Source: Candidatus Dormiibacterota bacterium
GTDB taxonomy: Bacteria; Chloroflexota; Dormibacteria; CF-121
Assembly (NCBI GenBank): GCA_036782775.1
Contig: DAIPYJ010000001.1
Span: 115,404 to 179,403 of the forward strand
Direction: 5' to 3'
Length of the DNA stretch: 64,000 nucleotides
Each line of letters opens with the position of its first letter. Position 1 is the first letter of the stretch. Shown here in pieces: positions 17,541 through 18,764 of the stretch. A model generated the notes under the pieces. It saw nothing but the letters and a program-made list of their open reading frames with translations. It did not search any database and was not told the DNA's origin. A program made the translations under genes and the position numbers.

Positions 17541-18364
17541 CAGCGTCGATCCAGTACGGCAAGCACAATGTCTCCTTCTATCGAACCCATCCCAGCCGTG
17601 GCCTTCTCGGCGGCCGGGTCAGCATCGACGTCTTCGGCGACAACTTCATGCCGGCCTATACCGAGGGCGACAACCGCGAGGTGGTCGCGACCGACACCAT
17701 GAAGAATTTCGTCTATGCCATGGCGCTCGAGTATGAGGGGGCGAGTCATGAGGGCTTCACCGCCTTCCTCGGGCGGCGTTTCCTGGAGACGTATCCGCAG
17801 ATGCAGTGGCTGCGCCTGGTCACGACGGAGACGCCGTTCGCCAGGCACAGCGATAAACTGCTGAGCCCGCTCGAGGACGACTACGGCATCGTGGAACTCG
17901 AGATCGGTCGCAATGGCGTCCGGGCGCTTCGCTGCGGGCGACGCGACTTGCGCCTGGTCAAGCTGACGGGGAGCGCCTTCAGGGACTTCGCCCGCGACCG
18001 GTACACGACTCTCCCGGAGGTCAGCGACCGACCGCTCTTCATCTATCTGGACGCCTATTGGCGCTACGGTCGCATCGACGATGCCGTCGCCGACGGGCCC
18101 GCTCGCGTCTCCTCGGAATCGGTTCGAGAATCGGTGATCGCTACCTTCGATGAGTTCGTGAGCATGTCGATCCAGCACCTGGTCTATGAGATGGGGCGGC
18201 GGCTCTTGGAGGAGTTTGGCGCGCTTTCCGAAGTCAGTTTCGAGGCGCAGAACCGGCTCTGGGACACGTCGAAGGTGTCCGAGGCCGAGCCGAAGACGCG
18301 CGTCTTCAGCGACCCCAAGCCGGCGCACGGCAACATCGGGCTTACCCTAAGGCGCGATGCTTGA
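17537..18364 (+). CDS. factor-independent urate oxidase (uricase)
   Basis: ATGA overlap with the upstream gene. N-terminus QYGKHNVSFYRTH is followed by a tunnelling-fold repeat, about 275 aa. It sits in the HIUase/OHCU context. Confidence 0.75.
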   Translation: MTASIQYGKHNVSFYRTHPSRGLLGGRVSIDVFGDNFMPAYTEGDNREVVATDTMKNFVYAMALEYEGASHEGFTAFLGRRFLETYPQMQWLRLVTTETPFARHSDKLLSPLEDDYGIVELEIGRNGVRALRCGRRDLRLVKLTGSAFRDFARDRYTTLPEVSDRPLFIYLDAYWRYGRIDDAVADGPARVSSESVRESVIATFDEFVSMSIQHLVYEMGRRLLEEFGALSEVSFEAQNRLWDTSKVSEAEPKTRVFSDPKPAHGNIGLTLRRDA

Positions 18365-18764
18365 GATCCAGGTCGGCGATCTGCGCTTTACGGCGCGGCT
18401 CGAGAACGAAAAAGCGCCGAAGACGATCGCCGCCCTGCGCAAGCTGCTTCCCTTGCGCGCCAAACTGATCCAGGCCCGCTGGAGCGGCGAATCCGCCTGG
18501 GTGCCGCTCGGCGATCTGCAGACTGGTCTCGGCTACGAAAACCACACCAGCTATCCAGGAGCCGGCCAGCTCTTGATTTATCCCGGGGGCATCAGCGAGA
18601 CCGAAATCCTCTTTCCCTACGGCTCGACCTCGTTCGGCAGCAAGGTCGGTCAACTGGCTGGCAACCACTTCGCCACCATCGAGGGCGGTCGCGAATTGCT
18701 TGCCGAGCTCGGCCGGCGCGTGCTGTACCAGGGCGCTCAGGAGATCGTCTTTACCGAGGGCTGA
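18357..18764 (+). CDS. uncharacterised small protein (possibly DUF3830 / cyclophilin-like fold) coupled to uricase
   Basis: Its start overlaps the uricase 3' end by 8 nt. The 135-aa product ([32 protein letters not shown]...) matches no family I can name with confidence. Confidence 0.5.

Follow-up and report, generated by a model that had tools for sequence, protein, structure and literature searches.

A DUF3830 protein encoded behind urate oxidase in a Dormibacterota purine operon: a candidate for the missing step between allantoin and glyoxylate

Purine catabolism is one of the most thoroughly mapped routes of nitrogen recycling. Curated reconstructions of it still miss steps between allantoate and glyoxylate, as in Haloferax volcanii (PMC8305020) and Rubrobacter xylanophilus (PMC4016543). 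The question raised by the locus described here is whether a small protein encoded at the end of a bacterial purine operon could fill such a gap. Its gene lies at positions 18357-18764 of a 64,000-nt stretch of DNA from a Candidatus Dormiibacterota bacterium (the whole stretch is called the window below), where it overlaps the end of a urate oxidase (uricase) gene, and its product belongs to the DUF3830 family (PF12903). We regard this protein as a strong candidate for the missing step between allantoin and glyoxylate. It very probably belongs to the allantoin-degrading branch, as an enzyme or as a ligand-binding component, and with a probability of roughly 0.4 it acts specifically at the (S)-ureidoglycine step. 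A link between DUF3830 and ureide catabolism appears to be unreported in the searchable literature, in which we found no mention of DUF3830, PF12903 or the family's structure 3KOP, and likewise nothing relevant on cyclophilin-like proteins together with allantoin.

The DUF3830 gene and its operon

The open reading frame (ORF) starts with the ATG at 18357 on the forward strand and ends with the stop codon at 18762-18764, giving a product of 135 aa. The ATG falls within the final codons of the uricase gene, whose TGA stop is at 18362-18364, and the overlap is exactly 8 nt (ATGCTTGA). A preliminary description of the locus had reported this overlap and quoted the protein sequence correctly, and it had rightly placed the genes for 5-hydroxyisourate hydrolase (HIUase) and 2-oxo-4-hydroxy-4-carboxy-5-ureidoimidazoline (OHCU) decarboxylase in the neighbourhood, both being directly upstream (16816-17124 and about 17121-17540, respectively). 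That 18357-18764 is a real and well conserved gene is confirmed by several observations. Its base composition resembles that of the neighbouring genes, with a GC content of 0.79 at third codon positions (GC3) versus 0.46 at second positions (GC2). A Candidatus Dormibacterota metagenome-assembled genome, whose contig is collinear with the window, encodes a 100% identical protein under the label "DUF3830 family protein". Comparison with seven orthologues gave dN/dS values of 0.13-0.27, indicating that the gene is under purifying selection. The ATGCTTGA junction with uricase is also present in two related loci (L004 and L005), and in a third (L019) an ATGA-type junction joins the DUF3830 gene to a urate oxidase of the PuuD type.

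Nine co-directional genes, of which the DUF3830 gene is the last, occupy positions 10753-18764; at each of the eight successive junctions the adjoining genes overlap by 4 or 8 nt or lie 7 nt apart. These genes, the putative ribosome-binding motif and the convergent neighbour are as follows.

10753-11967, forward strand: M20 amidase of the hydantoinase/carbamoylase family, allantoate-amidohydrolase-like, first gene of the operon (TIGR01879, 340 bits, above cut-off)
11975-12856, forward strand: xanthine dehydrogenase FAD subunit (PF00941, PF03450)
12853-13317, forward strand: xanthine dehydrogenase 2Fe-2S subunit (PF01799, PF00111)
13314-14627, forward strand: 8-oxoguanine deaminase-type amidohydrolase (NF006055, 616 bits versus a cut-off of 532)
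14624-16819, forward strand: xanthine dehydrogenase molybdopterin subunit, PucD-like (TIGR03196 pucD, 813.6 bits, above cut-off; Pfam MoCoBD_1/2)
16816-17124, forward strand: HIUase (PF00576, E 5.7e-26; TIGR02962, 88.1 bits, above cut-off)
17121-17540, forward strand: OHCU decarboxylase (PF09349, E 1.7e-32), with a GTG start as in the 139-aa protein called in related locus L001; the ORF opens at 17100
17537-18364, forward strand: cofactor-independent urate oxidase, uricase (PF01014, E 4.8e-33; TIGR03383, 198.5 bits versus a cut-off of 168)
18349-18352, forward strand: AAGG, a Shine-Dalgarno-like motif read from the sequence, within the 3' end of the uricase gene and 4 nt 5' of the DUF3830 ATG, with a presumed function in initiation
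18357-18764, forward strand: DUF3830 protein, 135 aa (PF12903, Pfam)
18737-19762, reverse strand: adenosine deaminase, convergent and not on the same transcript (NF006850, 552 bits, above cut-off; 341 aa as called in L001)

The start of the molybdopterin subunit gene, inferred from the ORF translation, is the ATG at 14624, which overlaps the preceding stop codon by 4 nt. The M20 protein reaches 376.6 bits with the model "allantoate amidohydrolase" (NF006771), slightly under the cut-off of 399. At the other end, the 3' end of the adenosine deaminase gene overlaps that of the DUF3830 gene by 28 nt, leaving no space for an intergenic terminator. Judged by its junctions, the DUF3830 gene appears to be translationally coupled with known pathway genes and would thus be a member of the purine/ureide cluster. 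No allantoinase gene is present in this operon. The sole cyclic amidohydrolase of the window, encoded 43 kb away (61940-63358, reverse strand), is by its TIGR02033 score (610 bits) a genuine dihydropyrimidinase. In the closest related locus (L004) an AllB/hydantoinase-like gene (985-2265) lies directly 5' of the M20 gene, a slot that in the window is taken by a gene for an AMP-binding enzyme (9094-10533).

Gene neighbourhoods in bacteria and haloarchaea

A scan of one genome per GTDB species gave at least 597 encoded relatives of the protein, and the loci of the 80 closest relatives (59-84% identity) were analysed over 10 kb on either side of each gene. They were annotated by tblastn with the window proteins and with representatives verified by Pfam/NCBIfam; since ORF calling is crude in such high-GC DNA, the locus counts rest on tblastn. 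The 80 loci belong to Dormibacterota, several classes of Chloroflexota, Actinomycetota (Gaiellales, Thermoleophilia, Solirubrobacterales), Gemmatimonadota, Acidobacteriota and Alphaproteobacteria. Purine-catabolic genes were found near DUF3830 in 58 of them and, when only the 43 loci with long flanks are counted, in 32. The numbers of loci encoding each enzyme are 48 for HIUase, 42 for M20, 40 for urate oxidase, 39 for OHCU decarboxylase, 37 for xanthine dehydrogenase and 35 for allantoinase (AllB). Taken together with the archaeal loci described below, linkage to purine or ureide genes is kept across distant lineages, namely at least five bacterial phyla and the haloarchaea.

The preliminary description had proposed the protein as a component of urate-to-allantoin metabolism, e.g. 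as an accessory of uricase or as a stabiliser of intermediates such as 5-hydroxyisourate; a protein converting this compound or OHCU would fall under the same reading. The immediate neighbours support the linkage but not this step of the pathway. Within 250 nt of DUF3830, M20 is found in 24 loci and AllB in 21, i.e. as much as urate oxidase (16 loci). On the upstream side these neighbours are co-directional urate oxidase (15 loci), divergent HIUase (18) and an NCS1 permease (7), and on the downstream side co-directional AllB (19), co-directional M20 (11) and convergent M20 (13). Coupling to uricase in the window, L004, L005 and L026, and to a PuuD-type oxidase in those Actinomycetota loci where that gene lies directly upstream, is what a urate-oxidation accessory would predict, and OHCU does have a carboxylate that such a protein could bind. 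However, in 17 Actinomycetota loci the PuuD-type membrane oxidase (PF06181, E 3e-123) stands in place of uricase. As DUF3830 follows two urate oxidases that are unrelated and differ in their chemistry, a uricase-specific helper is unlikely. Moreover, HIUase and OHCU decarboxylase are already present, and many orthologues, including haloarchaeal and proteobacterial ones, lie in allantoin or hydantoin modules without urate genes. We therefore consider a role in urate oxidation very improbable. Since the partners are enzymes of the path from allantoin to glyoxylate as much as urate oxidase, the protein is better placed in the ureide branch downstream of allantoin.

The PuuD-type proteins are about 398 aa long (e.g. 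L019:8808-10004) and their genes lie between those for OHCU decarboxylase and DUF3830; NCBIfam gave no match for them, and no cytochrome c domain was separately detected. They belong to a family reported to be a membrane-bound urate oxidase of the cytochrome c type, and such an oxidase is not expected to release H2O2. Handling of uricase-derived H2O2 by DUF3830 was rejected, because the gene also follows this type of oxidase.

Within the ureide branch, the neighbours of DUF3830 are well defined. The AllB representative passes the allantoinase equivalog model TIGR03178 (478 bits versus 358), and as DUF3830 adjoins this bona fide allantoinase in many loci, the idea that it is itself an allantoinase was rejected. 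The M20 proteins adjoining DUF3830 pass or touch allantoate amidohydrolase models (543-568 bits with NF006775 versus a cut-off of 479). By these scores they are probable allantoate amidohydrolases, and the corresponding loci should therefore make ureidoglycine. Neither in the 80 loci nor in the window did tblastn (E 1e-5) with E. coli all-regulon and Paracoccus or Rhizobium queries detect a homologue of AllE, AllA, AllD or an Asp/Glu-family racemase. The allE gene of E. coli and Paracoccus directly adjoins the M20 gene, and this slot is taken by DUF3830 in the related loci. Carbamate kinase, a marker of the Rubrobacter-type route, was absent from all 80 loci.

The literature describes a gap at the same place. 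In their reconstruction for Haloferax, Pfeiffer and Dyall-Smith left the conversion of allantoate to ureidoglycolate without an assigned enzyme and assigned the M20 protein as ureidoglycolate hydrolase (PMC8305020, supplement S9.g). They termed the whole pathway highly speculative, and in earlier work xanthine was not metabolised by the organism (PMC8305020). Barba et al. reported that R. xylanophilus is without any known enzyme from allantoate to glyoxylate, and in its genome an "Unknown" ORF, Rxyl_2846 (UniProt Q1AS70), lies between allantoinase and a carbamoyltransferase whose formation of ureidoglycine is experimentally supported (PMC4016543). Ureidoglycolate breaks down spontaneously to glyoxylate and urea, as stated by Percudani et al. 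(PMC3793230).

Six of eight haloarchaeal replicons keep DUF3830 beside an M20 and/or a cyclic amidohydrolase gene, three of them inside urate clusters, and in Haladaptatus and Natronorubrum it has another neighbour. On plasmid pHV3 of H. volcanii, M20 is followed by DUF3830 (WP_004041235), and the cluster around the two also includes uraD, pucL and uraH as well as genes for xanthine dehydrogenase, a permease and a cyclic amidohydrolase. The clusters of Halalkalicoccus and Salinigranum resemble that of Haloferax, the latter also with malate synthase. Halorubrum and Halarchaeum show the order ABC transporter, cyclic amidohydrolase, M20, DUF3830 and D-2-hydroxyacid dehydrogenase, with overlapping or 10-nt-spaced junctions. 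In Natrinema, M20 and DUF3830 are likewise followed by a 2-hydroxyacid dehydrogenase, and in Halorientalis DUF3830 precedes M20, with NCS1 and amidohydrolase genes close by. The archaeal order of cyclic amidohydrolase, M20, DUF3830 and 2-hydroxyacid dehydrogenase matches that of the pathway, the last gene encoding a glyoxylate-consuming enzyme. In Halorubrum and Halarchaeum a gene of the fumarylacetoacetate-hydrolase family is convergent to the DUF3830 operon (L097:8179-8901 and L102:9414-10142, both on the reverse strand). The literature that could be searched did not support a link of this family to ureidoglycolate lyase, and such a link was given no weight.

A related possibility is that DUF3830 is a urea-lyase acting on allantoate and/or ureidoglycolate, i.e. 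a non-homologous allantoicase or ureidoglycolate lyase, the M20 protein then being a ureidoglycolate amidohydrolase or dispensable. Urea would leave from the bis-ureido or carbinol-ureido carbon. Two loci (L077 and L080) fit such a role. In these, DUF3830 is accompanied by genes for xanthine dehydrogenase, uricase, OHCU decarboxylase, HIUase, AllB, RidA and malate synthase, and M20 is missing from the surrounding 10 kb; three Limnocylindria loci resemble them. The assignment of M20 by the Haloferax curators (PMC8305020) and the lack of AllA homologues in the 80 loci are also consistent with it. However, the adjoining M20 proteins score best as allantoate amidohydrolase, and we noticed neither a urease nor a urea carboxylase in the loci, although no systematic search for these was made. 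We judge a urea-lyase to be improbable; its chemistry is of the same class as that proposed for ureidoglycine, and genomic context thus cannot separate the two.

Fold, conserved residues and a possible reaction

The protein has a single, full-length Pfam match, to PF12903 (E 5.8e-32, 111.1 bits versus a cut-off of 26), in which residues 4-132 cover positions 3-141 of the 143-position profile. In an NCBIfam scan no model matched it. With 135 aa it is a stand-alone single-domain protein, and its orthologues are 134-146 aa long. Like 3KOP, it has the fold of a cyclophilin-like beta-barrel, and a single compact domain is predicted with high confidence, so that the "cyclophilin-like or DUF-type fold" of the preliminary description was right. 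The structure 3KOP, a structural-genomics entry for a "protein with a cyclophilin-like fold" from Arthrobacter sp. FB24, is a PF12903 member without assigned function; it has about 30 additional N-terminal residues and 22% identity to the window protein. It was reached by profile only, as phmmer with the single sequence against PDB gave no match. The family comprises 976 clusters at 50% identity and at least 8000 scored clusters at 90% identity, all with E of 0.001 or less. Since it has no assigned function, family membership tells nothing of mechanism. A Rosetta-stone search returned ten longer entries (223-644 aa) without a second Pfam domain, except for one with a DDE transposase; they are most likely gene-calling artefacts, and fusions are thus uninformative.

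Some candidates were rejected at this level. By eye, no N-terminal hydrophobic stretch that would suggest a secreted or membrane protein was seen (no prediction tool was used). A cyclophilin-type peptidyl-prolyl isomerase (PPIase, PF00160) was discarded because the protein has no Pro_isomerase Pfam match. Cyclophilin PPIases and TM1367 (PF04126) have 8-17% identity to the DUF3830 protein, whose operon context is small-molecule catabolism.

The residues conserved in the family are the loop R41-W42-S43-G44-E45, E61 and N62, the motif Y75-P-G-G, S80-E81-x-E83, Y88-G89, F93 and G102-N103-H104. Glu61 is the only invariant residue of the alignment and Asn62 comes next, both being in the long loop 51-70. 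The characterised relatives used for comparison are the Pictet-Spenglerases KslB (9K0A) and McbB (3X27) of the cucumopine-synthase family, which have in common with DUF3830 the beta-barrel domain with its carboxylate-binding xxSGE loop. KslB binds its substrate L-tryptophan by the carboxylate, through the backbone amides of V223-V224-S225, and its essential catalytic residue is Glu274, equivalent to Glu97 of McbB (PMC12012969). The R-W-S-G-E of DUF3830 aligns with V-V-S-G-E of KslB, and W-x-P, Y-G and H motifs are also found in both (weak hhalign match and MAFFT --add). The hhalign match, between the DUF3830 alignment and a Pictet-Spenglerase-like protein encoded on plasmid pRi2659, covers 41 columns with a probability of 3.8%; as it is short and of low probability, the register was checked by MAFFT --add. 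The catalytic part is different. In the MAFFT alignment the T-T-E of KslB that carries the catalytic Glu is opposite a 3-residue gap in DUF3830, which has S-T-S-F in this region, with F93 nearly invariant. The alpha-helical bundle domain (Cucumopine_C) of KslB and McbB has no counterpart in the 135-aa protein, which is barrel only and has no other Pfam match. A Pictet-Spenglerase activity was rejected on both grounds, and the contexts also differ, being alkaloid or opine synthesis for KslB and McbB and catabolic ureide metabolism for DUF3830. DUF3830 is thus homologous to an amino-acid-binding enzyme barrel and, as far as can be read from these alignments, has kept the carboxylate loop of that barrel within a different catalytic constellation.

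The pRi2659 protein of Rhizobium rhizogenes (318 aa, L096:16264-17220, reverse strand) is annotated at NCBI as "DUF3830 family protein" and is actually a KslB/McbB-type homologue (E 1e-65 to 9K0A/9NS6). Its gene lies among histidine-utilisation and hydantoinase/oxoprolinase genes, and it may serve cucumopine catabolism rather than synthesis.

The M20 and AllB partners, the occupation of the allE slot, the archaeal gene order and the carboxylate-binding loop conserved in the fold relatives together point to ureidoglycine. The protein would be a soluble single-domain enzyme, translated together with the genes for the conversion of xanthine to allantoin, that works in the ureide branch from allantoin to glyoxylate, just after the M20 allantoate amidohydrolase. 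Its substrate would be the unstable alpha-amino acid (S)-ureidoglycine or a close ureido acid, with the carboxylate bound in the backbone-amide pocket of the W42-S43-G44-E45 loop. Glu61 could serve as general acid/base, aided by Asn62, Tyr75, Tyr88, Asn103 and His104, and ammonia or urea would be expelled from the aminal carbon. The product, ureidoglycolate or glyoxylate, could then be used by malate synthase or a 2-hydroxyacid dehydrogenase. In this role DUF3830 would be a non-homologous substitute for the cupin AllE (YlbA), the (S)-ureidoglycine aminohydrolase (UGlyAH). The two proteins occupy the same slot, directly adjoining M20 in allantoin clusters, and would fill the same gap in the pathway, but there is no kinship in sequence or fold and DUF3830 has no cupin Pfam match. 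UGlyAH has about 260 aa and is a bicupin that depends on Mn. Any function common to both would be a matter of analogy, not of family membership. Somewhat more speculative is the wider proposal that DUF3830 replaces UGlyAH and possibly also ureidoglycolate lyase, carrying ureidoglycine straight towards glyoxylate, and that the proteobacterial orthologues do the equivalent after hydantoinases.

The small size of the protein and its close association with M20 or AllB in bacteria and archaea alike could alternatively mean that it is a non-catalytic, ligand-binding or scaffold partner of these amidohydrolases, e.g. for the hand-over of an unstable intermediate or the assembly of a metal centre, and the cyclophilin-like superfamily does include many binding modules. 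Such an accessory role is quite improbable. An invariant Glu with a conserved polar cluster is typical of an active site, and the closest characterised structural relatives are enzymes. In addition, DUF3830 is found with either partner alone, about one quarter of the loci have neither, and no fusion to M20 or AllB was found among the longer entries.

Hydantoinase contexts and the racemase alternative

Several observations weigh against action on ureidoglycine. In Agrobacterium vitis, Aureimonas and Azospirillum, DUF3830 lies directly after a true dihydropyrimidinase/hydantoinase gene with no M20 nearby. In Paraburkholderia aromaticivorans it is close to a hydantoinase gene on the opposite strand, again with no M20 nearby. 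These orthologues have 55.0% (A. vitis and Aureimonas), about 60% (Azospirillum) and 53.7% (P. aromaticivorans) identity, and their contexts fit better with a role on the hydantoin ring. A plasmid of Paracoccus pantotrophus carries two tandem DUF3830 genes (L087:6495-7414) beside an operon with allE and M20, and since both DUF3830 and AllE are present in this organism the two functions may not be equivalent. A divergent regulator gene adjoins these paralogues, and the neighbouring operon also encodes a peptide ABC transporter. Among the 80 loci, seven purine loci have AllB and no M20 within 10 kb, twelve have M20 and no AllB, and 22 have no scored gene for urate oxidation, AllB, M20 or xanthine dehydrogenase, some of these being short contigs; in three of the 22 a nucleoside-type (Bmp) ABC transporter follows DUF3830. 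Four Gemmatimonadota loci have, just 3' of M20, a Cupin_5/DUF985 gene (E 1.7e-44) that could itself fill the cupin step.

L021:12987-13487, reverse strand: Cupin_5/DUF985 gene, also found in L016, L018 and L023

At the level of the protein, the roles proposed for the residues are drawn from the weak hhalign match (3.8%) and the MAFFT add-in, i.e. from sequence rather than structural superposition, and no metal site is evident in DUF3830, whereas UGlyAH is Mn-dependent.

The main rival of the ureidoglycine reading is a racemase, and the "racemase-like activity" listed in the preliminary description thus remains a live option. DUF3830 would in this case be a new-fold racemase of allantoin or other 5-substituted hydantoins, interconverting the (R) and (S) forms so that allantoin that is imported, or that arises without an enzyme, becomes fully usable for a stereospecific allantoinase. 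The ring of the hydantoin could sit in the "proline pocket" of the cyclophilin fold, with Glu61 abstracting the acidic C5 proton; the equivalent barrel of KslB does remove a C-H proton with a Glu. The gene contexts provide further arguments for this activity. AllB is the commonest co-directional downstream neighbour, with a median gap of 18 nt across the AllB cluster, the proteobacterial orthologues come directly after dihydropyrimidinase/hydantoinase genes, and an NCS1 permease of the allantoin/hydantoin type is encoded immediately 5' in several Dormibacterota loci. The lack of Asp/Glu-type racemases in the 80 loci points in the same direction. HpxA and the hydantoin racemases of this superfamily are, like DUF3830, associated with allantoinase or hydantoinase genes; their fold is unrelated, and DUF3830 has neither the two-cysteine motif nor an Asp_Glu_race Pfam match.

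Other clusters argue against a racemase. In Paraburkholderia largidicola, DUF3830 ends a cluster of permease, racemase, hydA and racemase genes, so that two Asp/Glu-family racemases are already encoded there. In Rhizobium johnstonii, where DUF3830 comes after RidA, two deaminase-like amidohydrolases and a racemase, and in Haladaptatus, an Asp/Glu racemase gene is also near. These three clusters indicate co-occurrence, not displacement. The twelve purine loci mentioned above and the window combine DUF3830 and M20 with no allantoinase within 10 kb, and the archaeal gene sits after M20 and before 2-hydroxyacid dehydrogenase. Finally, what the SGE loop of the homologous enzymes binds is a carboxylate, a group that allantoin lacks. 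On balance, a racemase seems unlikely.

If the ureidoglycine reading holds, the gap between allantoate and glyoxylate would be closed in Dormibacterota, Chloroflexota, Actinomycetota, Gemmatimonadota and haloarchaea, and a function would be available for a DUF with about 1000 clusters at 50% identity. It would also give a second chemistry to a fold now known only from bacterial Pictet-Spenglerases, and pathway predictions could be corrected for abundant soil lineages (Dormibacterota, Chloroflexota, Gaiellales), where turnover of ureide nitrogen is ecologically relevant. Were the protein a racemase or an accessory factor instead, it would still be a new component of a textbook pathway.

Genes of the RidA family (imine deaminases) are found near DUF3830 in an Anaerolineaceae purine locus (L080:5787-6221, forward strand) and in the Rhizobium cluster (L084:3888-4364, forward strand), and the window has one at 23552-23971 (forward strand), 5 kb downstream of DUF3830 in a separate operon. 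Their proximity may be a coincidence or a hint of imine intermediates. In Skermanella, DUF3830 comes after genes for a ring-opening amidohydrolase and a formamidase. In the window operon, the 8-oxoguanine-deaminase-type gene (13314-14627) is interposed between the genes for the small and large subunits of xanthine dehydrogenase, an arrangement that recurs in many related loci. The region 5' of the operon (4589-9108) contains genes of the kynurenine pathway, namely those for a putative cyclase resembling kynurenine formamidase (4589-5374, forward strand), kynureninase (6625-7857, forward strand) and tryptophan 2,3-dioxygenase (8314-9108, reverse strand).

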